Source: Gemmatimonadota bacterium
GTDB lineage: Bacteria > Latescibacterota > UBA2968 > UBA8231
DNA length: 64,000 nt
Assembly (NCBI GenBank): GCA_038153405.1
Contig: JAYOYH010000004.1
Coordinates: forward strand, 99,626-163,625
Direction of reading: 5' to 3'
The number at the start of each line of letters is the position of its first letter. The first letter of the stretch is position 1. The position numbers were made by a program, and so were the translations under genes. The notes under the pieces are model-generated. The model was not told where the DNA came from. It saw only the letters and a list, made by a program, of their open reading frames with translations, and searched no databases. Below, piece after piece: positions 14,660-52,872 of the stretch.

Positions 14660-14660
14660 T

Positions 14661-16430: not shown

Positions 16431-16454
16431 AAGACCTCTTCAGGTTGGCTTGTC

Positions 16455-28001: not shown

Positions 28002-28945
28002 TACGATGTCTCCAATCGACTGCCGCCATAGCGCCAGTTGATTAGCGTAGCAACAAAGATGAGGGCGAAGAGCACCATGGAAATCGTTGCCGCATAGCCG
28101 ACTTCTAGCTGCTGATACGCTTGCGTGTAGATGTAGTAGCTAATCGTCGTCGTCGAGCCACCCGGTCCTCCACCCGTCATTATATAAGCTGCTTCAAACC
28201 CCCCCTGCAAACCGCCGATCACGCTGGTTACGAGAATAAAAAACGTAGTCGGTGCCAGCTGTGGAATCGTTATGTAGCGCAGTTTCATCCAGCCGTTAGC
28301 GCCGTCAATATCGGCTGCCTCATAGAGTTCAGGAGGGATGTTCTGCAAGCCGGCCAGATAGAGAATCATACTAAATCCACCGGCACTCGCCCACACGAAA
28401 ACGATAATCAGCGCCGGCTTAGCCCAGCGCTCGTCGATTAACCATCCGGGCAACAGCGCCGCAGCATCGGCACCTGTGACGCCAAAAATGTGGTATAACT
28501 TCCAAAGAAATCCATTTATGATGCCGACGTTGGGCTCATAGGTCAGCAGCATCGTCCACACCATGTAAATGGCAATGCCGCTACACAGATGCGGTATGAA
28601 AAACAGGGTGCGAAACACGACGCGACCGCGTATCTCGCGGTTTAGCAGCACGGCCAGCAGCAGCGCACAGGTCATGGAGAGCGGAATGTTGAGCATGAGA
28701 AATAACGTGTTGGCCAAGTACTGCCAGAAATACGGATCGCGCGCCTGCCACGCGCCATCGACGCTATCAAACCACAGCAGGTCAGCAAAATTGCCCAGCC
28801 CGACAAACGACGGCGTGCCGGTGGCCAGCTGGTAGCGATAGAGGCTCATACCGGCAGCCACGAGAACGGGGCCCAGCGTGAAGATGACAAAGCCCAGTAG
28901 ATTGGGCAGCAAAAAAAGGACCGCCGCACGCCCCTGCCGCTTCAT
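28001..28945 (-). CDS. Carbohydrate ABC importer permease (MalF/UgpA-like)
   Basis: FVGLGNF, ELYEAADIDGA, MTGGGP; start set to ATG 28945 overlapping SBP stop. Confidence 0.95.
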   Translation of the reverse strand: MKRQGRAAVLFLLPNLLGFVIFTLGPVLVAAGMSLYRYQLATGTPSFVGLGNFADLLWFDSVDGAWQARDPYFWQYLANTLFLMLNIPLSMTCALLLAVLLNREIRGRVVFRTLFFIPHLCSGIAIYMVWTMLLTYEPNVGIINGFLWKLYHIFGVTGADAAALLPGWLIDERWAKPALIIVFVWASAGGFSMILYLAGLQNIPPELYEAADIDGANGWMKLRYITIPQLAPTTFFILVTSVIGGLQGGFEAAYIMTGGGPGGSTTTISYYIYTQAYQQLEVGYAATISMVLFALIFVATLINWRYGGSRLETS

Positions 28946-30231
28946 AGGTCGTCCCCCTGCGCATAAATCCGATCCAAATAGTCGTTGGTTGTCTGGTGCG
29001 CGCGGGCCAGCGCCTCTTCGACCGACTCGCGTCCCGCCAGGGCCGCGTCTAAATCGTCGAGCATAAAGCGGTACAAATCCTCCCACCAGAGTTCCTGCGG
29101 AAAGAGATGGACGTCGTACTCCATGGACTCGACAAAGGTTTCTTCAGACCACGGCGTATCGTCGCGCACAAAAGCACGGCGGGCCACCGATCGCTGCGGC
29201 GGCATATCGCTGCCGAGCTGGGCCATTGCCGCCGTAGCCTGCGAACCCACCATGTGCTTGACCAGATCCCAAGCCAACTCGGGCTGCTTGCTGTTTTTCC
29301 AGATGGTAAAACCAACGCTTGCGTAGCGCGTTTTGCGCCCGTCGGGCCCTTTGGGAAACAGGGCCGTATCCCACTCAAAGCGATCGAGGTACTGATACTG
29401 CGGTATACGCCACGGGCCGGAAATATCGATGGCAATGCGCCCGGCTTCAAAGGTGAACGTGCTCATCGTCGCGTCCGTACGCATGCCAGGGCGCGGCGGA
29501 CTGACCTGGTGCTTGAAGTATAGATCGACGTAAAACTGGACCGCATCGCGCACGCTGGGATCGTCGAGGTTGGATACGTAGCGACCGTCTTCCATCCGCA
29601 AAAACTTTCCCCCGCCGCTCCAAACGTAGTTCGCGATGTCGTAGGGAGAACAACCATACACGTCGTATAAGCCGTCTTGATCGACGTCGATAGTGAGCTT
29701 TTTGGCTTTTTCAAGCAGCTCATCCCACGTCCAGTCGGGCGATGGATACTCGACGCCGTACTGGTCGAACAAATCTTTATTGTAAAAGCACGTGACCGTG
29801 CTGCCCTTAACCGGTAGACCATAGAGCTTGCCGTGGTAGCTATAGGCTTCCAAGCCAACCGGATAATAATCACCGACGTCGATACCGTCGCGTTTGACGA
29901 GTTCATCGAGCGGCAGCAGCTGCCCCGTGCTAGAGACCTGCGCCATTTGTCTCCAGTGCAGCACGCAGACATCGGGCGCATGCCCTGCATCCATACCGGT
30001 GAGTAATTTTTGCACTACGCTGCGCCCGGGCACAACCTCCAAGCGAAAAAGCTTATCGGGGTTTTCGCGTCGATACTGCTCTGCCATGCGCCGAAAGAGC
30101 TGTGCTTCCTGTGGCGAGCCGTATACCCACACAGTGAGCATATCTTCCGCAGGATGCCAGTTGATGTAGCGCGCACCAACAAATGCGACGAGCACTGCGG
30201 CACACGCAGCGAATAGCCTTATATACAGCAT
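28942..30231 (-). CDS. Sugar ABC transporter substrate-binding protein
   Basis: APDV, GKLYGLP, FYNKDLF, WTWDEL, FEAGRIA; N-terminal hydrophobic segment; start set to ATG 30231. Confidence 0.92.
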   Translation of the reverse strand: MLYIRLFAACAAVLVAFVGARYINWHPAEDMLTVWVYGSPQEAQLFRRMAEQYRRENPDKLFRLEVVPGRSVVQKLLTGMDAGHAPDVCVLHWRQMAQVSSTGQLLPLDELVKRDGIDVGDYYPVGLEAYSYHGKLYGLPVKGSTVTCFYNKDLFDQYGVEYPSPDWTWDELLEKAKKLTIDVDQDGLYDVYGCSPYDIANYVWSGGGKFLRMEDGRYVSNLDDPSVRDAVQFYVDLYFKHQVSPPRPGMRTDATMSTFTFEAGRIAIDISGPWRIPQYQYLDRFEWDTALFPKGPDGRKTRYASVGFTIWKNSKQPELAWDLVKHMVGSQATAAMAQLGSDMPPQRSVARRAFVRDDTPWSEETFVESMEYDVHLFPQELWWEDLYRFMLDDLDAALAGRESVEEALARAHQTTNDYLDRIYAQGDDL

Positions 30232-30248
30232 GGCTGAGCCTTGGCAGG

Positions 30249-30289
30249 AATAAAAAAATCCCCATCCATCAGAAAGTCGAACGGATGGG
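30249..30289 (-). terminator. Rho-independent terminator-like hairpin with U tract
   Basis: Minus strand CCCATCCGT..ATGGATGGG followed by GATTTTTTTATT. Confidence 0.65.
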
Positions 30290-30342
30290 CTCGAGCGAAA
30301 TTTCGCGCCGTGCAAGGAGAACACAGCTGCGAAGAACACCAC

Positions 30343-30385
30343 GCGATTGCTGCGACAGCTCGTGAGAGTCTGTCGCAGCAATCGC
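30343..30385. other. Very stable stem-loop downstream of CBM9-like gene
   Basis: GCGATTGCTGCGACAG (30343-30358) pairs perfectly with CTGTCGCAGCAATCGC (30370-30385); no U tract. Confidence 0.8.
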
Positions 30386-30421
30386 CGTGATTGATACCAC
30401 AACTACTACATTGCTACTAGC

Positions 30422-31312
30422 TTAGAACTGAGCTTTGATCATACCCCAGCTAGCGGCTTCAACAGCGGTAGAACCGCCTTCCGGCCATGCAATAGCCGGA
30501 TCCAACGGAGCAATCAACAGGTCCATATCGGCATGGCAGCAACCCTCAACCTGGGTGCCCCACTGACCGATGCGGTTGTCGCCTTCACCTTCACCACCAT
30601 CAACCTCGTTGACGATGAAACCGACGTGAATCGTCTCGCCTTCGGTCAAGTTGTGGATATTGACCTCAGCCTCCGTGGCTTCTTCGTTCTTGGGCATGCT
30701 GCTAATCGGCTGAATCGCGATTTCGTAGGTGTAGGTGCTCTCGCCAAACTCTTCGCCTTCGAAGCTAAAGTCGACGGTGAACCACTGCGAACCGCTGGTC
30801 AACCAGGGCAGGGTCTTGACCGGACGCAGCCACTCGAAAGTGCCTTCGACCGGTGGAAAAGCGAACTTGTACGAAAAGCTCGTGGCCGTCTCGCCAGCGT
30901 TGTGCTGGTCGCGGGCCTCGTGCAGTGCGTTGACGTCGATTTCCCAGCTATCATCCCAGAAAAACTTACCCGGGTCCTGACGGCGAATCACGTGAATATC
31001 GTCGTAGACGCGGCTCGTCATATAGAGATTGTTGCTTGCTTCGTTCCAACCGGCCAGGTGGCGAATGTTCAGCGAGCTAGCGTCGAGCTCTTCGATACCA
31101 GCTGCTTCGGCAAAGCCGTCCAGCGAGTTGAGACGGTCGTTCTGAATGCCGTACACATCGACGGGAATCATGGCCCAGTCGGCATCGCTACCGTCGATCA
31201 CGGGCTGATTGCCATCGGGAAACTGCACGGCAACCATCAGACCGTTGTCGTGGGCCTGTGCGGAAAACGCACCGACCAAAACAGCCGTCATCGCAAGGAT
31301 TGACTTCCTCAT
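30422..31312 (-). CDS. Secreted acidic CBM9/DOMON-like putative sugar-binding protein with TAVE..WG.IK tail
   Basis: Signal peptide (AQA-H); PVIDGSDADW, GWNEASNNLYMTSRVYDD, WDDSWEIDV pattern; ends STAVEAASWGMIKAQF; GAGGAG RBS. Confidence 0.7.
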   Translation of the reverse strand: MRKSILAMTAVLVGAFSAQAHDNGLMVAVQFPDGNQPVIDGSDADWAMIPVDVYGIQNDRLNSLDGFAEAAGIEELDASSLNIRHLAGWNEASNNLYMTSRVYDDIHVIRRQDPGKFFWDDSWEIDVNALHEARDQHNAGETATSFSYKFAFPPVEGTFEWLRPVKTLPWLTSGSQWFTVDFSFEGEEFGESTYTYEIAIQPISSMPKNEEATEAEVNIHNLTEGETIHVGFIVNEVDGGEGEGDNRIGQWGTQVEGCCHADMDLLIAPLDPAIAWPEGGSTAVEAASWGMIKAQF

Positions 31313-31446
31313 TGTCTTTCTCCTCAATAACAAGTTGGTTAAAAAAGACTTCACGTTTTGCCGTTAACAGCACGGCGAACTACTTCCTTACCTCCTTTCA
31401 CTTTCAACAAATGCAGCGATAGACACTGCATAGATAGACTGTTGGG

Positions 31447-34095
31447 CTATTCTAACCCAGCATACACGGTAATAAATGCCTGTGTTCCCGTACTGGATTC
31501 TGCTGCAGCAAAGTCCTTACGCTCCATGGACAGGCCGACGAGCGCCTTGATAACGTATCCCTGATAGGCTGACGTATTGTTAAACTGCACGGCTCCCAAA
31601 AGGGAATTAAAGTCGTTTACATCGTTATCCAAGTCGTTGAAGATCACGTACTCGACACCTGCCTGCAGTGATGTCACTTTGAGCAGCGGCAGTTCCACCA
31701 ACGTCGAGAAGATCTCCGTCAGCGATTTATTGCCGCGCTGAGTAAACAGGTCTCGACTCTGGTTTATGTATTCACTCTTCCAGCGCGGTTCGACACGAAT
31801 ACGGCCCAGATCGCGCTTGTAGCTCACTTTGTTGATAAGTCCGAAGAAGAAGTCCGACTTGTCCACGTTGTACTGCTCGCGCAGCTGGCGGTTCATTAAC
31901 TGCCGATAGAGCGTGTAGTTCACCTTGTTGGTCAGTTTAAACGCACCAACGCTCAGGTTATGCCCCAAATACGACTGGTTGACAAACGAATCGCGCGCGA
32001 TGAGCGGGTCTTCTATACGCGTTAGGCTACCGCCGCGCAGCGTATTATCGGGAGCCCACTGCAGCAGCGGATTGGCAATATCGTCTGCAACCCTCTTGTT
32101 CATTTGAAAGAAACGCACATTGCCGTAGCGCGGAGAGCTTCCATCATACGTGAGTAACACGTAATCACCGTGGTTTTTTTGGTCCGAAGAAATGAGCTCT
32201 TCGCGCAGTAAACCGACCATCAGGCGCATTCCCGGCAGCAGATTGACGCCGCCGTATACGTTGTAGCCACGGTGGTCTTTGCGATACGGGTAGTCAGGCA
32301 ATTCGTCGTTTTCGTACTGGTCGACCCAAAAGTTGTTGTTCATATCCATGCCGAACAGGAACTCTGGTCGATCTACGGAAAAGCGCAAAAAAGGCTCTTC
32401 GTAATCGGGCAGAGAGTTCATCTTTACCCGGTTGTCATTCTGGTTCAGATCAGGAAGAAAATCGTTATTGGCATCCCAGCCGGGAAAAACCTGACGATCG
32501 GGCGCATTCCAATCGGCTCTAAACCAATCGGGAATGCGGTCCTGGTCGTCGTTATCCTCGACCAATTCAACTATGCTGCCCGGATGTGAATAGTCGATGT
32601 CTCCCTGAGTGTCCGTAACAAACGACTGCGTATTGTAGAAGGGGTCCATCGAGTAGGCCTCGCCGTATGCGAAAAAGCGCTCCGACCTTTTGGACGCATT
32701 GATCATCCAAGCCGGCGACTTGCTCTTACCGCGTATACCCGATGTGGCCCTATGCGACTCCTCGAGTTGGTTGGGATATTTGCGAAAGCTCCAGCTTAAA
32801 TCGTACTCGGCATACAGATCGAGCCCCCACAGATCAGATATGTTCAACGTCCAACCCAGTACGCTGGTAGAGGTGGGCAGGCCATAGTCAAAACTGACGG
32901 TGCGCAGGTTGGTGATGTCCTGAATATTGCCTTCAGCTTGGGCCACCATCAGCAGCACGGGGTTTCCGCTGCGATCCGTCTGGCGGTCCGACGTCATCCA
33001 AATCTGATAGTCGTTGGCGACCACCAATTGGAACTCGACGCCCACCACTTCGGAAGCATCCCCCTTGGCCCGATTGACAAAGGCCGGCGTGTTGAAGTCG
33101 TAGAGGATGCGAATTTCTTCGTTTCCATCGGCGGAAATATACCCTCTATCGACCACACCTCCCTCGACGACGGGCAAGAATCGCAGGTCACTGCCCCGAT
33201 CAACGGAACCGTCGCGATAGGTTATGACAATATCCGAACCCGAAGGAAAATACGCCGCACCGCCGGTTCCATCTTCGGGTGAATCATCCCGCAGGACGAC
33301 CTGTATGGTAGATATCGTCTGGTTCTGCCGCGTAGTTAACCCTCCACGCAGCTGGTTCTCCACCAAATCATCCGAGCGCGTATTGGAATTGTGCGAGTTA
33401 ACGGCGTGTGCGCCAATCTTGACAAAATCGCCGACCTGCGTGGCGATGCGCGTCCCGAACAGCGTCGTATTATTGGTCTGCGAGACCTCTACGCCCTGCG
33501 TGCCGCGCGGCCCCGTAAAGCGCGCATAGACTATCGAGGCTTCGTGCTTGTCGTTTGCCAGGTCAAACTGAATGCCGTCCAAGCGCGGCTTGGAAAATGA
33601 CATCGGCGTAAATGTCGTGCGCAGATTCGAACTAATAGTCAGCCCGTAGTGGTACTGGCCCCTGTGATCGCCTGCGACCACGAGTTCGGCAAACCAGGAG
33701 CGAAAGCGATTGGCTTTAAATAGCACATTGCCAAAGTCTTGGCCACTGGTCTCACCGCTGTTAAATATTAGCCATCCCTGCGATAGGCGGTTGCCGTACA
33801 AATCGTAGAAGTAGTCACCCGTCAGGCTGATATCGACCGGCCGCAGATACGGTTCGCGCGCGTAGTTGGTATACTCCCACTGGCGCCAGCGATACTCTGG
33901 GTAAAGCTCTTGAGGGACGTACCAACGCCGCACAGCGGGATCAACCGTCCCGACGTTTACATCGACCCCCTGTGGAGCATAGCTGATATCGTCTCTAAAC
34001 TGCTGTCCCAATAGCGTTCCGTAGTTGATCTGAGCCTCTGCGGAATGGCAAAGCAGCATGAGAAAGAAGAAACTATGGCGGCACAATTTATGCAT
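31447..34095 (-). CDS. Large exported protein, putative outer-membrane beta-barrel with Asp/Asn Ca-binding-like motifs (paralog B)
   Basis: Signal peptide (AEA-Q) from ATG 34095; collinear similarity to 40195-42867; amphipathic C-terminal strands ending FITVYAGLE. Confidence 0.7.
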   Translation of the reverse strand: MHKLCRHSFFFLMLLCHSAEAQINYGTLLGQQFRDDISYAPQGVDVNVGTVDPAVRRWYVPQELYPEYRWRQWEYTNYAREPYLRPVDISLTGDYFYDLYGNRLSQGWLIFNSGETSGQDFGNVLFKANRFRSWFAELVVAGDHRGQYHYGLTISSNLRTTFTPMSFSKPRLDGIQFDLANDKHEASIVYARFTGPRGTQGVEVSQTNNTTLFGTRIATQVGDFVKIGAHAVNSHNSNTRSDDLVENQLRGGLTTRQNQTISTIQVVLRDDSPEDGTGGAAYFPSGSDIVITYRDGSVDRGSDLRFLPVVEGGVVDRGYISADGNEEIRILYDFNTPAFVNRAKGDASEVVGVEFQLVVANDYQIWMTSDRQTDRSGNPVLLMVAQAEGNIQDITNLRTVSFDYGLPTSTSVLGWTLNISDLWGLDLYAEYDLSWSFRKYPNQLEESHRATSGIRGKSKSPAWMINASKRSERFFAYGEAYSMDPFYNTQSFVTDTQGDIDYSHPGSIVELVEDNDDQDRIPDWFRADWNAPDRQVFPGWDANNDFLPDLNQNDNRVKMNSLPDYEEPFLRFSVDRPEFLFGMDMNNNFWVDQYENDELPDYPYRKDHRGYNVYGGVNLLPGMRLMVGLLREELISSDQKNHGDYVLLTYDGSSPRYGNVRFFQMNKRVADDIANPLLQWAPDNTLRGGSLTRIEDPLIARDSFVNQSYLGHNLSVGAFKLTNKVNYTLYRQLMNRQLREQYNVDKSDFFFGLINKVSYKRDLGRIRVEPRWKSEYINQSRDLFTQRGNKSLTEIFSTLVELPLLKVTSLQAGVEYVIFNDLDNDVNDFNSLLGAVQFNNTSAYQGYVIKALVGLSMERKDFAAAESSTGTQAFITVYAGLE

Positions 34096-34123
34096 AAAAT
34101 TCCCTGCCCAATTAAGACCTCGG

Positions 34124-36139
34124 CTAATAGGCGACCGAAACGATACCGGTAGCCATCTTGCTGCCGCCGTCCACGTCGAGTTCAACCTGATACATGTATA
34201 TGCCCGGGCTAACCAGCACTCCGCCCTCGTCGCGGCCATCCCAGGCAATTCCAAACGATCCGCTGCGCGTCAATTCGTTGCCTATGCGGCGCACTAAACG
34301 CCCCGTTAGGTCGAATACGTTTACCGCAACCTCCGCATTGCCCTCGACGTTGCGCACGTCGTATTCGATAAGCACCTGGTCGTTGATTCCATCGCCGTTG
34401 GGTGTCAATACGTTTGACGATAGCTGCACATCGCTAATCAACTGGCCGCTCATCGGCGTGCGCACAGCGAGTACATCTCCGCCAAAGCGAAAGGTCGCAT
34501 TGCCCGGTTTAATCTGCTGTTTCAACTCCGGCTCTGCGCTGTCGTATACCCAACCCGTAAACTCCGTGCCAAACCGCAGCACCTTGGCATCGAATACCAC
34601 CTCTATGCGCTTTTCGTTATCCTGCGGAGCCACCAGTCGGTCAAAGCTCAATACAATTCGATCGTCCTCGATCTCAGGCGGAAAGCGATCGATCATCTCG
34701 ACGCCGTCGACCAATACCGACTGAACCGACTGAACGCGCGTCTGCGTGAAGATCTCTAGTTTGTCAAAACCCTTGTCGCCCGTATCCAGCAGCGGCCGCA
34801 CGACGTAGGTGAACGTGTGCACGTCAAAGCTCTCCGTCACCAACGGCCAGATCTCGCCCAGGACTTCCTGCGCGGCCGGCTGTTCATCAAAGAGAAATGC
34901 CATCTCGTCTATGCGCGGTGCAATCTGGCCGCTGCTGCGAAAAACAACCTGAAACTGCAGATAGCGCGTGGGACTCGGAGACTGCACGACGACGCCATCT
35001 ACCCACTCTTCACTCGGGTACTGTTCGTCTTGCAGACCGGCGTTAAAATCGTACGGCGGCGACCAGGTCGACCATGCTTCGCGGTTGTATTCGCGCCGAA
35101 TCTGGCCATACAAACCCGAGTTGTATGCGCCGCGATACTCGCTTTGTGTCACTTGCTCGAACTCCCCAGTGCTACCCACGCGCCAGAATATGTACGGCTG
35201 AGGCGTGTTGCCGGTCCGCGTGCGCAGCATGATCTCGCTGCCCTCGGGAAACGCACCCTTCCAGCGCACCTTACTCCATGCAACGGGTTTGCCAAAGTCC
35301 AGCACAGGGCTGGTATAGCTCGTGTTGGTGACATAGCCATCGCCGTAAATTTCAAATTCGGCAATCTCCCAATCGCGTTCGGCATTGATCGGGCGTATTG
35401 CAATCCAATGCAAATCGCGCGTTGGAAAACGCAAATCCACTACGGCGTCCAAGTTTTCCGTGTTGCGCTGCAAAATATCCAGAGCCGGGTCGTTGGCCGC
35501 CGTTAGCGTGCGGTCAATGTCTCGGTACCAGCGCTTGCCGGGCTGGTTCATCCCCGGAGCCGCAACAAAGGGCGCCGTGCCATCCGCCACGCCAATCTCG
35601 TACCACTGCAGATAGTTTTCTTCAAAACCCGGGCGGGGATAAAATCGGATGCGGTTAATAGGCAGCTCTGCTCCCAGGTTAACTATCAGGTTTTTCACAT
35701 AACCGATGTTGAGACCCTGTAAACGCGGCGAAAACTCAACGCGCCGCAGCAGCGCAGTTGAGGGATCGCCGTCAATCAGTACCTGCAGTGCCTTCGTTGC
35801 CTCACGCGCGTATGAAGCACTCACGCTGGAGTTGAGGTGGCCTTTGCGATCGGCCAGGCTGCGCGATAGGTTTTCGTTTGGATCGATCCACACCGGACCG
35901 ATACTGTTATTGGCGTAGTCAATCATCGTGTCGATACCCGCAACTTCCGGCGCATAGTTGACCGAGCCCGTCGCCGTAACTACACCGCTCCGATCCACGA
36001 TCAGATAGACCGCATTTTCGCCCGTTATCAGCCCCTGCCACGTGTTGCCATCAACGCCGCCCAGACGAAACTCGGATCGAGCCCACAGGCCATCGGCCAA
36101 AAACAAGAGCAATCCCATAAAGACGAATCGTCGCATCAT
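34124..36139 (-). CDS. Secreted protein with discoidin-like domain and FlgD-Ig-like C-terminal domain
   Basis: Signal peptide; VNLGAELPINRIRFYPR; RTRTG..WSTWS..SPSPTRYLQ; LTPNGDGIND..WDGRD..VSPGIY. Confidence 0.75.
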   Translation of the reverse strand: MMRRFVFMGLLLFLADGLWARSEFRLGGVDGNTWQGLITGENAVYLIVDRSGVVTATGSVNYAPEVAGIDTMIDYANNSIGPVWIDPNENLSRSLADRKGHLNSSVSASYAREATKALQVLIDGDPSTALLRRVEFSPRLQGLNIGYVKNLIVNLGAELPINRIRFYPRPGFEENYLQWYEIGVADGTAPFVAAPGMNQPGKRWYRDIDRTLTAANDPALDILQRNTENLDAVVDLRFPTRDLHWIAIRPINAERDWEIAEFEIYGDGYVTNTSYTSPVLDFGKPVAWSKVRWKGAFPEGSEIMLRTRTGNTPQPYIFWRVGSTGEFEQVTQSEYRGAYNSGLYGQIRREYNREAWSTWSPPYDFNAGLQDEQYPSEEWVDGVVVQSPSPTRYLQFQVVFRSSGQIAPRIDEMAFLFDEQPAAQEVLGEIWPLVTESFDVHTFTYVVRPLLDTGDKGFDKLEIFTQTRVQSVQSVLVDGVEMIDRFPPEIEDDRIVLSFDRLVAPQDNEKRIEVVFDAKVLRFGTEFTGWVYDSAEPELKQQIKPGNATFRFGGDVLAVRTPMSGQLISDVQLSSNVLTPNGDGINDQVLIEYDVRNVEGNAEVAVNVFDLTGRLVRRIGNELTRSGSFGIAWDGRDEGGVLVSPGIYMYQVELDVDGGSKMATGIVSVAY

Positions 36140-36167
36140 AATCGCATCTCCGAGCTCAGATTACACA

Positions 36168-38264
36168 TCAATACGCCACGCCAAATGGCTGAATAGTAGC
36201 ACTAGAACGCGCATCGCCCTCCACTTCAACTTGTAGCAAATAGAGACCCGGCGGCACCAACTCCCCGCCGTCATTGCGACCATCCCAGTTCAACTCGGGC
36301 TGGCTGTCGGCGCTGTAAATTCCGTTGTCGGCCAGTCCAACATACAGTCTGCGCACGCTCTGTCCCGCCAGGTTGAATATTTCCACGGAGACCCGTGCCT
36401 CACCGACGACGGCGAGAATTTCATAGCTCATTTGCAAGCGGTCGTTTACTGCGTCGCCGTTGGGCGTCACCACGGTTGTTGAGACATTTAACGCACCGAC
36501 CAGGCTGCCCGAGTTAACGCTCGGGCTCAGCACCGTAATATCAGATTTAAACGGCACGTCTTCGTCGTCGAGCAAAGCCGCATCGCCGGCAACGACGCCC
36601 TGAAAGGCCTCCTCAGCCAACAGCAGCACCCGACCTTCAAAGGTCGTGCTAAAGGACAGCACGCGGCTGACAAAGTGCACTTTAACCACCGAATTGTTGT
36701 CCAATACGCGCGGAAAGCGCACCACAAACCCATCGTCTGTTATGGAGACAATCTCCACATCGTCTTCTGCAGTAGGACGATCCTGAGTAACAAACGTGTG
36801 ATCAATCACGGCACTGCCTGTACCATCCAGAATTTCTATTCGATCAATACTCTTCACGCGCGTGCCCGTGGTCAATTCGAGCGTGTCAAAGCCCTGTATC
36901 TGTCCGCTGGTCATGTCGGTGCGCAGCGCATACACAAAGGGAATGTCCGTAGCCGCCGGCACTTCGCGCGGAAAGATTTCGCCAACGATCTCATCGGCCA
37001 GCGGCGGCGAGGTAAAGTCAAAGGAAAGCTGATCCAGCGCGTAGCTGGCCTCTAAATCTTCGCTGAGAAAATCGACGCGAAACTGAATATACTGACGAGG
37101 TCCAGGTGATATGATGGGCACGCCGTTTTCACTGGTGCCGTCTTCTAGTGAGTAGGGTGAAGTCCACGGGCTCCAGTTTTCAAGATCGTCGCGCACCGAA
37201 CCGCGTTCCCATTCATCAGACTGACCACCTTTTTCGGGCAGGCGAAGATATTCACGACGCTCCAACGGCTGCGTGGGGTCGCTCACCGAGAGCGGTATCT
37301 CTTGTGCATCCTGCAAACCGACGCGCTTGCGCGTGTAGGCGAACGGCGTGGAATCGCTGCCGCTGCGCGAGCGAATCTGCATATCAACCCGATCTGCATT
37401 GCCAACCAAATTCTGCAGCCAGCGCAAGCGCCCCCAGTTGGCAGGAGACCCCATGTCGATTACGGGCGATATGTAGCGCGCCGTAGGAAAGAACCCCTCT
37501 CCAAATACCTGAATTTTCTCTATTTCAAACGGAATCGAAGACGTCGCACGCAGACGCAAAAAACGCAGCAGGCGAGGGGGGTCGATGTTGATTTCCGTTA
37601 TCGGGCTGTCGTTGTTGGTGCGCGTTTCGTATAGCTCCCAGATCGGATTACCCGCTTCTGTCAGCACCACGCCATCGTTGATACTCACTTCAAAGTTTTT
37701 GAGGAAGTCGCCTTGAAACGGCGTGGCTGGGGACGGGAATACGGTATTCCGAGGAAAGAATCGCAGCTGATTCACCCCAAAGCGCCCACCCAAATCCAAC
37801 ACCATGAGCGTGCCGAGAACAAAGTTTCCCTTGCGCTCAAATGCCCTTCCATTCGGCGACGACGTAATGAGTTGGTCGAGCGTCTGGCGCAGCTGTGCAT
37901 CGGATATATCGAGCACCGTTGGCGCCGTGAGCCGACCGCCCCGTTCGCTTATTTGCGTCGCAATGTTTTCGCCGACACCGACGCGGCCCGGCAATATACT
38001 ACCGGGGAAATCGGCGCTGGAAAAATCGATCAGCTTCGAGGGTGTATTCCCTATTTCCGTAACGGTGGGATCGAGCGGCGAGCGATATTCGGGATCAATT
38101 GCAGAGAATACAACTCCGCTTACCACGTCGCCCTCCCAACTGATCTGACCGTCTCTGCCGAGCGTTAATACCTCGGCAGCGTCTGCGCTAGGCAGACTCC
38201 CCAGACAGGCCAGCAGAGCGCCGGACGCGCACCAACTCAGCAACTTGCTTCTCATGCTCCTCAT
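36168..38264 (-). CDS. Secreted protein with discoidin-like domain and FlgD-Ig-like C-terminal domain
   Basis: Signal peptide; LDLGGRFGVNQLRFFPR; RSRSG..WSPWT..SPGPRQYIQ; TPNGDAVND..WDGRN..VPPGLY; start may be 38255. Confidence 0.75.
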   Translation of the reverse strand: MRSMRSKLLSWCASGALLACLGSLPSADAAEVLTLGRDGQISWEGDVVSGVVFSAIDPEYRSPLDPTVTEIGNTPSKLIDFSSADFPGSILPGRVGVGENIATQISERGGRLTAPTVLDISDAQLRQTLDQLITSSPNGRAFERKGNFVLGTLMVLDLGGRFGVNQLRFFPRNTVFPSPATPFQGDFLKNFEVSINDGVVLTEAGNPIWELYETRTNNDSPITEINIDPPRLLRFLRLRATSSIPFEIEKIQVFGEGFFPTARYISPVIDMGSPANWGRLRWLQNLVGNADRVDMQIRSRSGSDSTPFAYTRKRVGLQDAQEIPLSVSDPTQPLERREYLRLPEKGGQSDEWERGSVRDDLENWSPWTSPYSLEDGTSENGVPIISPGPRQYIQFRVDFLSEDLEASYALDQLSFDFTSPPLADEIVGEIFPREVPAATDIPFVYALRTDMTSGQIQGFDTLELTTGTRVKSIDRIEILDGTGSAVIDHTFVTQDRPTAEDDVEIVSITDDGFVVRFPRVLDNNSVVKVHFVSRVLSFSTTFEGRVLLLAEEAFQGVVAGDAALLDDEDVPFKSDITVLSPSVNSGSLVGALNVSTTVVTPNGDAVNDRLQMSYEILAVVGEARVSVEIFNLAGQSVRRLYVGLADNGIYSADSQPELNWDGRNDGGELVPPGLYLLQVEVEGDARSSATIQPFGVAY

Positions 38265-40159
38265 TCCCCGAATTGTCTCAGTACGGCGTTCAAATCGTCT
38301 TCCATCGCTTGCTGCACTTCAGCGTGCCGCTTGCGCGTTTCGAATAGTCTGCGAGCGGCTTCTGCTTCTTCCAATCGCCCCACGCGATAGTATAGCTTGC
38401 CGAGAAAGAAATGCGCTCGGTAGCCATCGGGCTCTATATCCCGCAGGTGCTCAAATACGGACAGCGCCTCTACAAAGCGCTCGTCAACGGCCAACAGCTT
38501 GCCCAACTCCCACAGGGCCGAAGGCTGGTCGGGATCCATGGCCAACACGGCATTCAACGCCTCCTCGGCGGCTTGCCTTTCGCCTCGCTCGACCAACAAG
38601 ACCGCCGAACGCCAACCGGCCTCTACGCTCCAGGCCGAGTGCGCGCTCAACAAACTATACGCTTCCAACGCTTCGTCTAGGCGCCCTACCGATTCACACA
38701 ATCGGGCCAATCCATAGCGCACGCGCGCGCTGTCCGGATGGCTAACCAACGCCTCGCGATAGGCTTCTAACGCCCCTTCGACATCTCCCATGAGCAGGCG
38801 AGCATCGCCGAGCACACCCAGCCAGCGATCGCCTTTCGTGTCGCCGTCGCTCAGTGCCTGATATTCTTTCGCTGCCTCGCGCGGCATATCGGCGAGCATA
38901 TACGTACGGGCCTGCTCGGCGCGAATGTTCAGACCAATCGCATCGGTGAATTTTGCCCGCGCTTGCTCATAGACCCGACCGGCGCGCCGATAGTCACCCA
39001 TTTCCCCATAGAGTCGAGCTAGGCCCACATATGCTCCAACTGGGGCCGAATCAAATCCAATGGCTGACTCGTACTCCCTTGCCGCATTGGCACTCATCGC
39101 CAATTGCTCGTAAGCGCGTGCGCGCACCTGACGCTCATGCACTGTTCCCCGTTCCTGCCAGACGTGCCCCCCGCGGTTGCACACGACGACAAGCGCCGCA
39201 AGCACGACCCAACCCAGCACCGCGCGCCGACCGGGCAGCACGCCTACCCACAGTTGCACGATCCCCTGCGCCGCTGCCAGCAGCAGTATTGGCACAGCCA
39301 CTGTGCGCAGCGCGGGATGCCCACCGTGTGGGACGGTGAGGGCTATGACCGCTAGGCAAACCACCAGAACGAACTTTTTTTCTGCGACCGCTCTGCTCCG
39401 CCAAAGGGCGAACAAACCCAACAACATTAGAGGCCCTATTGCACCCCAGGGAAAAAACAGCCACCGGTGCCACAGCAGCGCGGCAACGATGGTTTCCTCT
39501 GTCGCCAGATAGGGATCGGCCAAATCGGCCCATTCTCCGCCCCAGAAAAATCGCGCCAGAGCCGAAGGCCAATCGGCCGCCCCTGCAGGCTGTAGCGCTG
39601 ACCATCCTCCGGTCCACAGCAGCATCGAAAGCAGGCCCAACAGCCAACCGCCCACCATAAACGCCGCATGGCGCGATGCCCTTTTGCCAGCCCACCAAAT
39701 GCCGACCACGACCAGCAGGCGAACCGGCCCCGATAGCGCGCTCGCCATGCCAAGCAGGAGTCCGGTCCAGACTGAATGGACGCGCCAGACGACCAGCGAC
39801 GTCAGACCGACAAGCGATAAAAATGCGGCCCAAGATCCAGCACCGACCTGTCCTTCCATGTATATAGACGGACCGTAACAAGCGGCCATTGCGCCCGCTA
39901 AAAAGCCCACCCCATGGCCCAACAAGGTCGCTGCCAACTTCCAAACCAGCAGGCAGTTGACCACGCCGATACCCAGTTGAAGACCGATCAGCACCCCCTG
40001 CGATACACCCCACTGGCTCCACATGCCATCGGCTTGCGCCGCCGCGCTCAAGGGATCCTGGCCGACCTGCCATAGATAGACGACTCGCCACAGCAGGGCC
40101 ACTAGCCCAATGGCCACTACAGCCAAGAGCGAACCTCCACTCGCGCGCTCCCAATTCAC
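38261..40159 (-). CDS. Polytopic membrane protein (GT-C/ArnT-PMT-like) fused to TPR domain
   Basis: About ten hydrophobic segments including QLGIGVVNCLLVWKLA..AGAMAACYGPSIYMEG, then several TPR-like repeats. Confidence 0.65.
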   Translation of the reverse strand: MNWERASGGSLLAVVAIGLVALLWRVVYLWQVGQDPLSAAAQADGMWSQWGVSQGVLIGLQLGIGVVNCLLVWKLAATLLGHGVGFLAGAMAACYGPSIYMEGQVGAGSWAAFLSLVGLTSLVVWRVHSVWTGLLLGMASALSGPVRLLVVVGIWWAGKRASRHAAFMVGGWLLGLLSMLLWTGGWSALQPAGAADWPSALARFFWGGEWADLADPYLATEETIVAALLWHRWLFFPWGAIGPLMLLGLFALWRSRAVAEKKFVLVVCLAVIALTVPHGGHPALRTVAVPILLLAAAQGIVQLWVGVLPGRRAVLGWVVLAALVVVCNRGGHVWQERGTVHERQVRARAYEQLAMSANAAREYESAIGFDSAPVGAYVGLARLYGEMGDYRRAGRVYEQARAKFTDAIGLNIRAEQARTYMLADMPREAAKEYQALSDGDTKGDRWLGVLGDARLLMGDVEGALEAYREALVSHPDSARVRYGLARLCESVGRLDEALEAYSLLSAHSAWSVEAGWRSAVLLVERGERQAAEEALNAVLAMDPDQPSALWELGKLLAVDERFVEALSVFEHLRDIEPDGYRAHFFLGKLYYRVGRLEEAEAARRLFETRKRHAEVQQAMEDDLNAVLRQFGE

Positions 40160-40194
40160 TTGGCCGATATCTCATGGCGCGTTTGCATACCCTG

Positions 40195-42867
40195 CTAGTT
40201 CAGACCAGCGAAAATGGTGATGAAAGACTGACTCGTTAGCCGCGCTTTCTGACCGGAGAAGTCCCTGCGCTCCAGCGACCAACCCACCAAAGCGCGCAGT
40301 CGATAGCCGAGGTAGTCGGACTCATTGCTAAACTGCACTGCACCGACGAGTGAATTGAAATCCATCGAATCGTCTTCCAGATCGTTGAAGTACATGTACT
40401 CGATACCGGCCTGTAACATGGTGACCTTCAGCACGGGCACCCGAAAAAGAGCCGAGGCCAACTCCGTCAGCGAAGTCTCATCATTCTCGGAAAACAGACC
40501 GCGGCTCTGTTTGCGAAATTCGCTTTTAAAACGCGGCTCTATGACGACGCGTCCGATATTGCGGCGATAGCCAATCTTGTTGATGACGCCGAAAAAGAAG
40601 TCCGACTTGTCGAGCCCGTGCATCTGGCGATCAGCCCGACTCATCAGCTGGTTGAAGAGCACGTAGTTGAGCTTGTTCATCATGGAAACCGAACCGCGCT
40701 GCAGCGCGTGCCCGAGAAACGACTGACTCACAAACGTATCCCTTGCGAGCAGCGGATCTTCCACCTGCGTCAACTCGCCGCCCAGCAGCGTGTTGTCCGG
40801 AGCCCACTGCAATAGGTTGTTGGGAATGTCGTCCTCGACCTTTTTGACCATCTGAAATACGCGCAGCCGACCAAGGCGCGGTGAATCGCCGTCGTAGGTC
40901 ATCATTCCATACAGACTGTGGTTTTTCTGATTTGATGAGATCAATCCCTCGCGCAGCACGCCCAGCGACACGCTCATTTCAGGCGTGATATCGGCCTTGC
41001 CATAGACGTTATAACCACGGTGGTCTTTGCGGTAGGGATAGTCCGGCAGTTCGTCGTTCTCGTACTGATCTATCCAGAAGTTGTTGTTCATATCGACGCC
41101 GAATAGAAACTCGGGGCGATCCGACGCATAGCGCAGAAACGGCTCCTCGTAGTCAGGCGTTACGTTTGAGCGAACGAGGTTGTCGTTTTGGTTGATATCG
41201 GGGATGAAGTCGTTGTTCTGGTCCCATCCGGGAAATACGCGCGAATCGCCCGGCAGCCAGTCGAAGCGCACGGTGTCGGGATTGCGATCCTGATCGTCGT
41301 TATCCTCAACCAGTTCGACCATGCCGCGACGCTCGCTGTCATACTCTATGCCGCCAGCCCCCTGCGTGATAAAGGTCCGCGTATTGTAGTGCGGATCCAT
41401 GCTGTATGCTTCGCCAAACAGAGAAAAAACCGATGACTTCTTCGACGCATTGATCATCCAAGCAGGTGCGCTGCGCTGCGAGCCTACGCCAGAATACGCC
41501 TTGTGGCTCTCCTCGTTTGGATTGGGGTACTTGCGATAGTTCCAGTTCAGATCGTATTCGCCGTAAATATCGATTCCTTTGAAGTTGCGCACTTCAATCG
41601 TTCCGCCAAAAATATGCGTCGCCGTCGGAAGGCCGTACTCAAAGCGAACGGTTTCCAAATTCGTGATATCCTGGACGTTGCCCTCAGCCTGCGCCACGAG
41701 CAGCAGCACCGGCTGACCGTCCGTATTGGTCTGCTGATCGGATGTCATCCAGATCTGGTAGTCGTTGCCGACCGAAAGGCGAAACTCAACTTTCTCAATT
41801 TCTTCTTTGGCCTGGCTGGACTGGTCGACAAAAGACGGGCTGTTGAAATCGTAGAGCAGGCGGATTTCTTCGGAGCCGTTAGCGGCAATAAAGCCCTGCT
41901 CAACAAATCCCCCTTCGACGATAGGCTCAAAGCGGATATCTTTTCCGGAGTCTACCGTGCCGTCGCGATACGTGATAACCACGTCGGAACCGGCGGGGAA
42001 GTAGGCCGCTCCGCCTACGCCGTCTTCCGGTGAATCGTCGCGCAGAACGACCTGGATAAAGCCGACCGTCTTGTTTTGTCCGACGGTGAGCGCTCCGGCG
42101 AATGGATTGCCGGCGAGTTTGTCCGACAGCGTATTAGACTGGTGTGCGTTGACCGTATGGAGCGCCACTTCGACGAAGTCACCAAGCCCAACGCCAAAGC
42201 GCCCGCCAAGCAGCGTCGTATTGTTCGTGCGCGGAACTTCCAATTCGGCGGTAGACGATCCACCCGGACTGCTAATGCGCGAGTAGATCAGCGTCGCCTC
42301 GTAGCGATCCGTGCCCAAGTCGAACTGAACGCCGTCAAAGCGCGGCTTGGAAAAGACCATCGGACTCAGCACCGAACGCAGTTGGCTACTCACGGTCAGC
42401 GCGTAGTGGTACTGGCCCTGTTGGTCGGTAGCCACCACGACGTCGGAAAACCACTGGCTGAAGCGATCCGATTTAAACAGCGTATTACCAAACTGCAGAG
42501 GGCGGATCTGCGCGTTGTTAAAAATCAACCATCCGCGCGTCACGTAATTGCCGTAAAGGTCGTAAAAGTAATCGCCCTCCAACGTGGTTTCCACGTAGCG
42601 CTGATAGGGGTTGCGCGCGTAGTTGGTATATTCCCACTGCCGCCACTGATACTCCTTGTACAACTCCTGCGGCACATACCAACGGCGCATCGCCGGATCC
42701 AGCGCTCCCAGCATAACTCCGGGCCCCTGCGGCGCGTAGCTCGTTTCGGTCTGCGATTGGAGGCCCAACCGCGTTCCGTAGTCTACCTGTGCGCTTCCCG
42801 TCTCCGTGATCGCCAGCAAAGCTACGGCTAGCGACGAGGCGAAAAGCACTTTAGAAATCGCTTTCAA
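40195..42867 (-). CDS. Large exported protein, putative outer-membrane beta-barrel with Asp/Asn Ca-binding-like motifs (paralog A)
   Basis: TTG 42867 after GGAGG; signal peptide (GSA-Q); VEDNDDQDRNPD, FPGWDQNNDFIPD, DMNNNFWIDQYEND; ends FITIFAGLN. Confidence 0.7.
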   Translation of the reverse strand: MKAISKVLFASSLAVALLAITETGSAQVDYGTRLGLQSQTETSYAPQGPGVMLGALDPAMRRWYVPQELYKEYQWRQWEYTNYARNPYQRYVETTLEGDYFYDLYGNYVTRGWLIFNNAQIRPLQFGNTLFKSDRFSQWFSDVVVATDQQGQYHYALTVSSQLRSVLSPMVFSKPRFDGVQFDLGTDRYEATLIYSRISSPGGSSTAELEVPRTNNTTLLGGRFGVGLGDFVEVALHTVNAHQSNTLSDKLAGNPFAGALTVGQNKTVGFIQVVLRDDSPEDGVGGAAYFPAGSDVVITYRDGTVDSGKDIRFEPIVEGGFVEQGFIAANGSEEIRLLYDFNSPSFVDQSSQAKEEIEKVEFRLSVGNDYQIWMTSDQQTNTDGQPVLLLVAQAEGNVQDITNLETVRFEYGLPTATHIFGGTIEVRNFKGIDIYGEYDLNWNYRKYPNPNEESHKAYSGVGSQRSAPAWMINASKKSSVFSLFGEAYSMDPHYNTRTFITQGAGGIEYDSERRGMVELVEDNDDQDRNPDTVRFDWLPGDSRVFPGWDQNNDFIPDINQNDNLVRSNVTPDYEEPFLRYASDRPEFLFGVDMNNNFWIDQYENDELPDYPYRKDHRGYNVYGKADITPEMSVSLGVLREGLISSNQKNHSLYGMMTYDGDSPRLGRLRVFQMVKKVEDDIPNNLLQWAPDNTLLGGELTQVEDPLLARDTFVSQSFLGHALQRGSVSMMNKLNYVLFNQLMSRADRQMHGLDKSDFFFGVINKIGYRRNIGRVVIEPRFKSEFRKQSRGLFSENDETSLTELASALFRVPVLKVTMLQAGIEYMYFNDLEDDSMDFNSLVGAVQFSNESDYLGYRLRALVGWSLERRDFSGQKARLTSQSFITIFAGLN

Positions 42868-42928: not shown

Positions 42929-45900
42929 TTAGTACGCCACACCAACCAACTGCACCAACTGCTGCCCCGAAACATCTTCGGCGTCGGTTTCTACGTCCAC
43001 TTGGGCAATGTATAGCCCTGGCACGACCAAGACCCCATCATCGGCCCGGCCGTCCCAATGAAACTGCTGTGACCCACCCGACACGACGCGCTCTATGGTG
43101 CGCACGCGTCGCCCGTCCAAGCTGTAGATATGCACACTTACTGGGCGAGCGGCATGCACCTTGAACAGAGAGAAAGAGATGATCGTCTGGTCGTTAATCG
43201 CATCGCCGTTGGGCGTAAACGGGTTGGGCGCCACCTGCATTTTTTCGACCACATTGCCCGCGCCTTGGGCCAAGATCTCCAGACCAACGCCCGGTACGAC
43301 TTCCGTTACGTCTTCCGCGCTCGCCTCCTGCCACACCCCGCCGCTCGCGCCGTTGCGCACGGCAACCTTGATATTGGATCCCTGTAGAAAAATGCGCGAA
43401 GCAATGCGCAGACGTATCAAATCGCCCAAACTAACTACGGCTCCTCGACGGCTGGTCGGCAGACGATTGTAGTCGGTCTCCGTCAACAGCTCACCGTCGT
43501 CATCGTAGGGCGACTCTTCGCCCAGGGCCGCAACGATGCGGAAGTAGCGGACGGGGCCGCGCTCTTCGACGGGCAGATCTTCGTACTCGTCGCGATCCAC
43601 TTCGGTCAGCCCGCTTTCCCGCTGGCGAAAATAGCGGATATCGCCCTGTTGATCGATCGGTAGTATCGAATGCGATGTCGCTGTTAGCAGCAAACCGTCC
43701 ACCGTCGTCGGCACCGAATCGCCGACTTCCAACCTGCGATTGAATACGCTAGCCGCCCCCGCCGCACTCTCGAGTGGCTGTGGGAAGCGCACCCAAACCG
43801 AATCGCTCTGGTCGCCTGCAACCTGCACAATGCTTCCCGCCGCGCTAGCCAACCCGTCGCCGTCTGGCAGGTCGTAGATGACAGCAGGCGACTCGTTCTG
43901 AAAATCCTCTTCCGTGCCGACAGCCACATCGATCAGGTCCATATCCCATTTGGGCTCAGAGCGCAGCAGCATCTCGTCGAATCCGGGCTGAACGAGCGCG
44001 ACGGGCTGTGTGAGAAAGCCCGGGCGTAAAAACACTTCGAACGTGTCGAGAATACCGGCCTGCGTTTGCGCCGGCCACAGTTCGGCGCGCAGTTCCTGCG
44101 CAACCGGATTGTGCAGTTGCACCGATATGCGCTCAAGTGCCGGCGCGACAATTCGGCTATTGCTGATCAAACGCGCTTGAATTTGCATGTAGCGACGCAA
44201 ACTGGGCGACGTAACCCGGCCTCCCCGGTTGATGTATTTCTGGCTCCACGGACTCCAGTCAGGCCCCAGAGACAGCGTTGTATCGGTCACGCCCTTTAGA
44301 AAGCCGGGTAGCTTACTATATTGCTCCGCCGTCTGCTCCTCACCGCTATTTTTAAAGTAGCGCACAATCTGAAAGAGCTGGTTACCCGTCCGCGTGCGGA
44401 TTTCGACCTGCGTGCCAGGCGGCGTGCTGGCCTCCCAGTCAATAGCACCGAGGTTGAAATTGCCCGGCAATTCGATCAAGTCCGACTCGGCCACCACTTC
44501 GGCCGCCGGTCCCTCTGAAAAGATCTGCACTTCCGCAATCCAGGGCCAAAATTCGTCAATCCCAGCCCCAATATTATCCAAGTTAGTGTTGATAAAGGTG
44601 GTCAATTCGAGATAGCGGAGTTTGACCGGTGGATCCACCACGTCGTTTAGCGTAGTGAAGGAGCCGTTGTCGATATTCTTTTCGCGCTCGGGCGGACTCA
44701 AGGCCTGCCACAGCAGTTCGCCCCTGGCATCGCGCGCACCGGAAGAGCCGCGCATCAGGTATCCTCGTATGCCATCGGTGAAATAGCGAATTTCCTTAAG
44801 CCAGATCGACCCACCTAGGTCGACTATGAGGATATTGTCGTCGGGCTTTTCCGGATCGCGCGACGCGTGCTGATATCGGGTGGCACCATCTCCATCAAAA
44901 GCGGCTATAGGCGCCGCATTGGAAAAGGTGTGGCTGATCGATCCGCCCAGTCGCGCCAATCCCATACTCAGATTGTCGCCCATAGCCCAAGCGCCGACTT
45001 CAGCGAGGCGGGGCAGCTCGCGCCGATAGTACAGGCGCCGTCCCTGGCGTTCCGGTTCCAACGCCAAGTAGGTCGCTTCGTCTACCGGTTCTTCTCGGCC
45101 AGTTAGATCTTGGACGAAGTACTCTATGTCGCCGCGCTCGTTCACAGGTAGCGCCTGCCAGGCTTCCTCGCTTATCAGCTCGGCTCGTCCAAAGCGCGAA
45201 TCGGTGATGACGATGCGGATCGTCTCAATCTTGCGCCCCGTCCACTCAAAGTTGCTCACATTGGATACGAAGTTCGACTGATGACGGCCTGTCGCTACGC
45301 TGGCCGCAGAGAAGCGCTTTGACTCAACCGGCACATCGACCGGCAGCCCGTCGCTGACGGAACCGCTCTGAAAGATATAGGTGCGCTGGTCGGTGTTGGG
45401 CGCCTCGAAAGGCACGAAGCGCGAAAAGCGCAGGTTTCCTTCTTCAAAACGACTGGGCGTCTGGCGCTCGCTCAGCAGTAGAATAAACTTGTGGAAGGGA
45501 TCGCCCTGCCCCTCGTCGACAAACTGCAGGCGCAGCTGTTCCAACGGCACGACGCGCGCCAGGTCGACCTCGATCCACCACTGACTAATTGGGTCGTTCG
45601 GATCCGGCTCCCAGTAGGTATTGGGGTCGCCGTCCAAAATATTGGCGGCCATCTGCGGGTTCGACCCTACGCGACTCACGCCGGGGCGCACGGCATAATC
45701 GAAGATGGCATTTCCTTGCGTATCGAGTAGAATTTCACCCTTGTCGTTGATGCGCACCGTGCTGTCAATCGTCGCGATGCGCGCATCCTTGCTAAAGATT
45801 TCCAGCGGGCGTCGAAAACTCGTATCGGCTAAGACGTTGTACACCGTTCGGAACGATTTGGGAGCGATGCGTCCCAACGAATCGACGTATGCTAAATTGG

Positions 45901-52862: not shown

Positions 52863-52872
52863 CGTTGGCTCC

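Follow-up and report, generated by a model that had tools for sequence, protein, structure and literature searches.

A lineage-defining envelope family of predicted very large outer-membrane barrels, and the tailed discoidin proteins encoded beside it, in Latescibacterota

What is the function of two long paralogous genes that lie in one tight gene row of a Latescibacterota genome, separated by only three further genes? The genes, here called A and B, occupy positions 31447-42867 of a 64,000-nucleotide stretch (the window) of contig JAYOYH010000004.1 from GenBank assembly GCA_038153405.1, which is named as a Gemmatimonadota bacterium (Table 1). A sequence-only reading had taken their products for two paralogous outer-membrane barrels of about 890 residues sharing near-identical blocks, with an aromatic N-terminus and calcium-binding loops. 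The coordinates of both genes were confirmed, the proteins are identical at 531/873 positions (61%; BLASTP, 1138 bits) and each of the seven motifs quoted from them occurs once per protein. Both begin with a hydrophobic segment ending in A-x-A/G-S-A before a Gln, which by inspection we read as a signal peptide; for B, an in-frame ATG at 42894 is an alternative start that would give 899 aa. The pair is real and it does not stand alone, as the source genome encodes 23 such paralogues with pairwise identities of 23-68%. A and B belong to a real, lineage-defining envelope family of which the literature searched gave no description. New here are the coevolution support for a lumenal acidic plug, the odd number of strands, the co-occurrence of barrels and partners set against that of the type IX translocon gene SprA, and the recognition of A and B as sister orthologue groups of long standing, each paired with a partner of a different class.

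The mature chain of A was modelled with AlphaFold2 from an alignment of 141 rows (pLDDT 85.7, pTM 0.84; residues 1-66 of low confidence). The model contains 23 consecutive long amphipathic strands between residues 114 and 857, and the chain ends with the last strand. Short and long strand connections alternate cleanly, so that with the C-terminus assumed to be periplasmic both inserts (residues 216-382 and 461-584) are placed on the outer side. In a covariance analysis of 379 rows (effective number of sequences, Neff, 229), the antiparallel ladders of 20 of the 22 neighbouring strand pairs exceeded the highest value of any non-neighbouring pair, and both strand pairs that span the inserts are among these 20. 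Fold searches were dominated by outer-membrane barrels, none standing above the rest (best, VIA, Z 13.3); PorP, PorV and SprF were not among the rows listed, from which no exclusion follows. The matches of lowest root-mean-square deviation (rmsd) over at least 220 residues were PapC (3.8 Å over 250), PhuR (3.7 Å over 227) and Fiu (3.8 Å over 222), which suggests a barrel diameter similar to those of the PapC usher and the TonB-dependent transporters. The model, the fold searches and the ladders agree with the barrel assignment made earlier, and A and B are predicted to be very large outer-membrane barrels. An odd count of 23 strands requires either a 24th strand or an unusual closure; no coevolution ladder joins the last strand to any N-terminal segment, whether all 379 rows are taken or only those 136 that have the N-terminal extension.

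It had also been expected that the proteins would match no characterised family over their full length, and this held. Neither A nor B has a Pfam family or an NCBIfam match, and PDB sequence searches with A and three profiles gave no match (best E 0.082). The Atlas search returned unnamed clusters only, and the nearest named cluster, DUF6029 at 0.88, is a lead only. No description of this barrel family was found in the literature searched, the scope of which did not include subscription papers and supplements, and none of six envelope terms occurs in PMC12993501.

Deinococcus SlpA took ranks 1-3 in Foldseek (best E 9e-9), and A and B could accordingly be SlpA-like structural scaffolds, that is oligomeric, metal-plugged porin relatives that give order to the envelope, hold a surface layer and carry out no transport. 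SlpA and OmpM (8ae1, 7zgx; PF21620) are likewise very large barrels with acidic insertions in the pore; the available part of PMC9388160 describes those of SlpA as metal-stabilised, which the acidic insert of A resembles, and proposes a scaffold role. Weak SlpA_C matches were found in 9/51 divergent members and in 1/5 divergent paralogues of the source genome itself, on the same profile stretch. However, the TM-score of the best Foldseek match was only 0.24 at an rmsd of 17.5, and SlpA fell to rank 48 (Z 8.9) in a wide search. All SlpA_C matches were below the cut-off, those of the nine divergent members (E 2e-7 to 0.014, all <35 bits) covering some 60-100 of 656 profile positions, or about 4 strands. 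Unlike SlpA/OmpM, the barrels have no SLH match and neither a long helix nor a coiled-coil stalk before the barrel, have 23 strands against the 28-30 that PMC9388160 counts for SlpA, and occur in multiple copies with links to genes for cargo and for a motor. A scaffold would leave the large expansion of the family and its motor linkage without account, and we regard it as very improbable.

No other part of the family is as well conserved as the acidic insert, its family-wide hallmark: 26/97 of its columns are at least 90% conserved, compared with 12/275 in the C-terminal barrel. The two strongest long-range couplings, N564-K644 (z 20.8) and F549-S735 (z 12.2), link this insert with strands 14 and 17. 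From residues 545-584, couplings reach strands 14, 17, 20 and 22 at residues that face inward, and 14 of 18 couplings are directed to inward-facing strand positions (p 0.015; 6/7 at a stricter threshold, p 0.06). Since these couplings reach the inner barrel wall, the second half of the insert reads as a plug that enters the lumen from outside, and it likely closes the lumen in this way. The thrombospondin-3 or EF-hand loops proposed for this region were only partly retained. Thrombospondin type 3 repeats contain Cys, and there is none in residues 488-584; the isolated acidic blocks of A and B gave no Pfam match at E 0.05, TSP3 and EF-hand included. What stood is a single match in A to the EF-like 12-residue pattern D-x-D/N-x-D/N...E, found in the same loop of B, the sixth position of which is Gly in most paralogues and Phe in A and B. 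Judging from its composition and conservation, the insert may bind Ca2+.

The aromatic N-terminus is conserved in A and B, as had been noted, although within the family the YAPQG...WYVPQELY block is specific to a subfamily. This block is missing from the five most divergent paralogues of the source genome, 183 of the 379 aligned homologues have the C-terminus and not the first ~40 positions, and in the N-terminal region only N54, D75, G78 and G84 are kept in at least 90% of the rows. The couplings of the segment go to strands 1-5 and to residues of either face alike, 16/38 of them inward. This does not bear out a first reading as lumen plug; the segment may be either a plug or an oligomer face, the two roles proposed for it earlier. 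Insert 1, when folded alone, formed a beta-sandwich (pLDDT 88.5) with no Foldseek match at E 0.001 and a best structural Z of 6.1; its five strongest strand couplings all go to outward-facing residues (0/5 inward).

The family was then followed beyond the source genome. A profile search with E up to 1e-10 gave 869 clusters (50% identity, fragments counted), and the named relatives are hypothetical proteins of Latescibacteria or Gemmatimonadota (669 matches among 7994 candidates). Within the phylum, 91/151 genomes carry the family; it was found in 66/66 genomes of the source's own family, in 24 genomes of nine other families and in 0/60 genomes of four families. First-look candidates, which are not copy numbers, ranged from 10 to 91 per genome in the source's family. 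The 77 loci obtained from the best 80 of 560 confirmed matches had titles mostly of Latescibacterota or Gemmatimonadota. One locus is titled Planctomycetota, a label we doubt because its barrel is 82% identical to that of contig C7 of the source genome and the gene order is the same. A 2.5-kb contig of Zipacnadia, the only match among 61 genomes of that phylum, may be mis-binned.

In a FastTree phylogeny of 61 rows, with the C60 fragment left out, A and B form separate orthologue groups, which indicates that their duplication is old and that both copies have been kept; two proteins with near-adjacent locus tags, encoded on contigs of equal length, split one to the A group and one to the B group. 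Of the source genome's 23 barrels, 17 are in cassettes of two or three barrels. A tandem triplet of divergent barrels is present on contig C34, genome G152 has four tandem barrel triplets, and four well-assembled cassettes or loci hold a single barrel.

The genes that directly precede A and B encode secreted discoidin proteins with CHU_C-like tails. Fifty proteins of the source genome have such a TPNGD-type tail, and all of them (50/50) end in an aromatic residue. Their genes are strongly linked to the barrels: 32/50 lie within 10 kb of one, as against 3/37 genes with type-A-like tails and 131/2322 in the background, and 15/23 barrels directly follow a TPNGD-tailed gene. With PF13585 (CHU_C, cut-off 27) the 671-aa protein scored 35.4 bits and the other two partners of the A/B row 26.3 and 19.6; TIGR04131 gave 25.6 and 14.3 bits on partners (cut-off 35). 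Across the phylum, strong partner matches (E up to 1.8e-29; only eight candidates scored per genome) were obtained in 90/91 barrel-positive and 0/60 barrel-negative genomes, while ten barrel-negative genomes and one barrel-positive genome had only marginal matches near 1e-16. SprA was found in 148/151 genomes, 89/91 of the barrel-positive and 59/60 of the barrel-negative. Since SprA is also present in nearly all genomes that lack the barrel, the barrel tracks the tailed partners and not type IX secretion (the T9SS) as such. The source genome has SprA, PorV and C25/PorU-like genes; PorP/SprF, GldM and GldN were not found in it (93% complete), and as the controls were uninformative this does not show their absence.

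The partners form three groups, class I (support 0.998), class II (0.99) and a weakly supported class III, and six cassettes of the source genome carry all three. A follows a class III partner, its sister B a class I partner, and all three classes are found with the one barrel of cassette C79, so that the cassette and not a one-to-one pair is the unit. Complex prediction for barrel A with the tail of the neighbouring 671-aa protein gave a score of 0.00, which bears neither way on binding. Contigs C9, C47 and C52 hold orphan tailed pairs (~680 aa plus 780-860 aa), each from two classes, with no barrel on the contig; these may use barrels in trans. On contig C12 (L003:6105-7103) a 332-aa oxidoreductase-like open reading frame (ORF) lies between a class II partner and the barrel, the sole such interruption seen.

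This linkage could also be understood if the barrels were giant, non-homologous counterparts of PorP/SprF that collect type-B-like cargo or anchor it on the surface, in which case the plugged lumen would be structural and the discoidin proteins adhesins or a coat. The order of tailed gene and barrel is as for type B cargo and SprF-like genes in the available part of PMC12618676, and an anchor role is what PMC9143113 describes in the corresponding part. The lack of linkage of type-A-like tails, the presence of SprA, PorV and a C25/PorU-like gene and the co-occurrence of barrel and partner across the phylum fit as well. On the other hand, PorP/SprF proteins are 14-stranded and ~33 kDa (PMC9143113), compared with 23 strands in 860 aa here, and neither A, B nor the five divergent paralogues match TIGR03519 or PF11751. 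The C7 and C10 cassettes already encode small PorV/PorQ/PorP-like barrels (matches below the cut-off), by which the shuttle job may be filled. The different partner classes of A and B, and the one barrel with three at C79, fit poorly with one-to-one pairs, and an anchor alone needs no ExbB/ExbD. We consider a purely anchoring function rather unlikely, though it deserves to be kept in mind.

The order of genes around A and B is DUF6785, SurA-like peptidyl-prolyl isomerase (PPIase), 1044-aa tailed protein, B, a membrane protein with tetratricopeptide repeats (TPR), 698-aa tailed protein, 671-aa tailed protein, A, 310-aa secreted protein and an ABC transporter set, all on the same strand. The gaps from the PPIase to A are no longer than ~60 nt, with one 4-nt overlap, and this part of the row is probably co-transcribed. 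A promoter scan gave a signal below shuffle level. Short near-identical pieces of A, B and their neighbours occur in three metatranscriptome assemblies, the contigs of which cannot show transcription, its level or co-transcription.

Table 1. Barrel genes A and B, regions of A and neighbouring genes, in window coordinates (residues numbered in the mature chain)
Feature	Position	Strand	Remarks
ABC binding protein (SBP_bac_1, probably carbohydrate type) and two permeases	27093..30402	minus	last genes of the same-strand row
310-aa secreted protein	30422..31354	minus	ends SWGxIK; no Pfam match; two relatives at other barrel loci match CBM9_1
Barrel A	31447-34095	minus	ATG start, 882 aa; putative signal peptide ~23 aa, mature chain 859 aa
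Acidic Asp/Asn insert of A	32275..32646	minus	residues 461-584; putative metal binding
Insert 1 of A	32881..33381	minus	residues 216-382; predicted beta-sandwich with conserved DDSP motif, extracellular by strand parity
Trp/Tyr-rich N-terminal segment of A	33688..33927	minus	residues 34-113; couples to strands 1-5
671-aa secreted protein	34124..36139	minus	class III partner, directly before A; weak F5/8-type-C (discoidin) match and CHU_C/FlgD tail with terminal Tyr
698-aa secreted protein	36168..38264	minus	same family as 671-aa protein; FlgD/CHU_C-like tail; class II partner
632-aa protein	38261..40159	minus	membrane domain of ~9 hydrophobic segments without Pfam match, followed by C-terminal TPRs
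Barrel B	40195-42867	minus	TTG start, 890 aa; sister paralogue of A, own orthologue group
1044-aa secreted discoidin protein	42929..46063	minus	class I partner immediately preceding B; FlgD/CHU_C-like tail
SurA/parvulin-like PPIase	46067..47833	minus	8/10 such paralogues <=10 kb from a barrel gene
DUF6785/DUF6784 polytopic membrane protein	48061..50049	minus	putative transporter; 4/21 paralogues <=10 kb from a barrel

Several other features of the window and of this gene set were noted. A second DUF6785/DUF6784 gene lies at 56040-58100; there are 21 such paralogues in the source genome, one of them fused to M28/FtsX (contig C5, 2122 aa), and the term DUF6785 did not occur in the papers searched. 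Thirteen secreted proteins of the source genome end in S/T-W-G-x-I/V/L-K like the 310-aa protein, 7/13 of them encoded within 10 kb of a barrel, and a third sorting signal may lie in this ending. The 310-aa gene (30422-31354) is matched by contigs from each of the three RNA assemblies, and expression cannot be ranked from contigs. Upstream of the cassette (51210-54789) are two enzymes with type-A-like tails, one glucose/sorbosone dehydrogenase-like and one with CBM6/35 plus pectate lyase. Four tandem ABC half-transporters (ABC_membrane plus ATPase) are encoded on the minus strand at 12878-20041.

At the more divergent loci of contigs C7 and C34, the barrels are accompanied by a ~1080-aa TPR protein, ExbB, ExbD and DUF4159 proteins. 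In 37 of 38 orthologous loci (close kin) the barrel is followed by the TPR gene, and crude ORF calling recovered ExbB in 29; a 1090-aa TPR protein together with one ExbB and two ExbD is conserved across these loci. A third set of ExbB/ExbD, a 1079-aa TPR protein and DUF4159 is present on contig C85 (L095:8437-14676), where an edge fragment resembles the PorV-like gene of C10 and a barrel gene may lie beyond the contig edge. Contig C17 (L096:37-14946) carries a TonB-dependent receptor with an 840-aa tailed protein, a PorV-family barrel, an M28/FtsX fusion, a DUF6785-like protein and a 660-aa membrane protein. The M28/FtsX, DUF6785 and 660-aa genes come after the large barrel on contigs C7 and C60, and at C17 after the TonB-dependent receptor, the tailed protein and the PorV-family gene. 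For the 660-aa protein the label 'OPT-like' was dropped, as it had no Pfam or NCBIfam support. A 250-aa lipoprotein is linked to barrels in all of its paralogues (7/7) and is not in the A/B locus. At loci L001, L002 and L003, leucine-rich-repeat (LRR) proteins with lipoprotein-like starts directly follow barrels, and 4/5 LRR paralogues are within 10 kb of one. FG-GAP/ASPIC-UnbV proteins also occur with TPR genes near barrels, 10/22 within 10 kb and 15/22 within 20 kb (L008, L009; C5, C7, C10, C34).

The motor genes raise the possibility that the barrels form an export or assembly channel, or a motility or adhesion platform, driven by ExbB/ExbD/ExbD with the TPR scaffold and perhaps replacing GldKLMN, comparable to an usher or to the Myxococcus Agl-Glt apparatus. 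Usher barrels carry a beta-sandwich insertion early in the barrel; A has a similar barrel size, its insert 1 comes after the sixth strand, and PapC was a partial match of low rmsd. The conserved set of one ExbB, two ExbD and the 1090-aa TPR protein, the tandem divergent triplets of C34 and G152, and the PPIase and 250-aa lipoprotein that travel with barrels would also suit such a machine. Yet, unlike the insertion of PapC or FimD, insert 1 is extracellular by parity with outward-facing couplings and probably does not plug the lumen. No usher Pfam match was found, no periplasmic C-terminal or chaperone-binding domains follow the barrel, and the loci hold no chaperone or pilin genes. The partners already bear SprA-type tails, with SprA in nearly all barrel-positive genomes, and a set of 23 to dozens of divergent copies would be better suited to many substrates than to a single motor track. 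A channel or platform of this kind therefore appears improbable to us.

We tentatively favour another function, in which A and B form a gated, probably proton-driven importer with discoidin surface caps, ExbB and ExbD acting in trans. What we propose for the route of export, for docking and gating, for the coupling to energy and for the substrate is as follows. The barrels would be exported by Sec, helped in folding by the SurA-like protein and inserted in the outer membrane, the genes for which are present. Partners of classes I, II and III would be exported through the SprA translocon by means of their type-B-like tails, perhaps with the small PorV-like barrels as carriers, and would then dock on the large barrel, forming a cap for the capture of glycans or peptides. 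The coevolution contacts suggest that the pore is closed by the lumenal acidic loop, an in-folded loop at 134-147 and perhaps the N-terminal aromatic segment, and the plug of the acidic insert may be metal-stabilised. The TPR scaffold and a membrane-anchored DUF4159 protein, linked by gene order at other loci only, would couple ExbB/ExbD to the barrel; the ABC transporter or the DUF6785-type proteins of the same row would move the solute across the inner membrane. Within one assembly of this kind, A and B may represent two subunits or two specificities.

A narrower version of the importer seems to us a rather doubtful prospect. Here hetero-oligomers of 2-3 divergent barrels would be gated, each barrel by an internal loop stabilised by calcium, capped by three classes of T9SS-exported lectin-like proteins and energised by ExbB/ExbD via TPR/DUF4159; this would be a new class of proton-driven machine of the outer membrane, an independently evolved counterpart of SusC/SusD with tens of copies in each genome. 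The barrel would possibly be closed by a strand from a neighbour or a cap subunit, which is suggested by the 23 strands, the lack of a closure signal and the aromatic ends of all 50 tails. Because single-barrel cassettes or loci exist, hetero-oligomerisation is not obligatory.

A number of observations weigh against import. There is no motor gene at the A/B locus, and only 2/4 ExbB genes of the source genome are found 10 kb or less from a barrel. Neither a Plug domain (PF07715, E 0.01) nor a TonB-receptor barrel was matched by A or B. None of 45 sulfatase homologues (0/45) lies within 10 kb of a barrel, and degradative enzymes are not enriched, unlike in classical polysaccharide-utilisation loci. 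ABC binding proteins are weakly enriched (2/7 within 10 kb, uncorrected p 0.048), and only 4/21 DUF6785 genes are that close. The M28/FtsX-DUF6785-660-aa module occurs without a visible barrel nearby at C8 and C49, and for 14/50 tailed genes any barrel is over 20 kb away or on another contig. The four barrel-negative families are related and do not represent independent losses. Finally, the depth of the coevolution analysis is modest and the strand faces were assigned by our own parity.

Latescibacterota are widespread uncultured polymer degraders whose uptake across the outer membrane is ascribed, in the available part of PMC4454575, to porins without specificity and to a small number of TonB receptors. 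With 23 barrels against 7 PF00593 matches in the source genome, and 10-91 first-look candidates in genomes of its family, the barrel family looks like a main envelope investment. If the barrels are importers, they are a non-homologous solution to the task of SusC/SusD, with a different gate and T9SS-exported caps; if they are anchors, the display of type IX cargo extends far beyond 14-strand shuttles. In either case the predicted plug contact N564-K644, the three cap classes and the conserved motor-linked operon are concrete targets. The near universality of SprA (148/151), next to GldM and GldN not being found in the source genome with uninformative controls, bears on how the T9SS is energised.

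Compared with known systems, the barrels share with TonB-dependent transporters and SusC/SusD a large plugged barrel of similar apparent diameter, an adjoining gene for a surface partner, many paralogues, and Exb motor and inner-membrane transporter genes nearby; contig C17 even holds a true TonB receptor in a parallel cassette. Unlike TonB receptors, A and B are without PF00593, and none of the 7 PF00593 matches of the source genome is at a gene of the barrel family. TonB receptors are closed barrels of 22 strands; 23 consecutive strands were counted in the model of A, without a signal for the closing strand. The predicted plug is mainly an internal acidic loop, the N-terminal segment being ~110 aa with a low-confidence start. 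The partners are tailed discoidin proteins and not SusD lipoproteins, and the loci differ from those of SusC/SusD also in having no enrichment of degradative enzymes. With T9SS type B cargo and PorP/SprF (SprB-SprF and PG1035-PorP-PorE, in the available parts of PMC9143113 and PMC12618676), the resemblance lies in a CHU_C-like cargo gene that adjoins a barrel gene, in repeated arrangements of this kind, in orphan cargo elsewhere, and in the SprA, PorV and PorU-like genes of the source genome. The barrel is, however, nearly three times larger than PorP/SprF and without detectable homology to it, three cargo classes share 1-3 barrels, and the tails end in an aromatic residue. By the features compared here, the barrels belong neither to the TonB receptors nor to PorP/SprF, SlpA/OmpM or the ushers, yet in their working they would be most like SusC/SusD or a cargo-plus-PorP pair.

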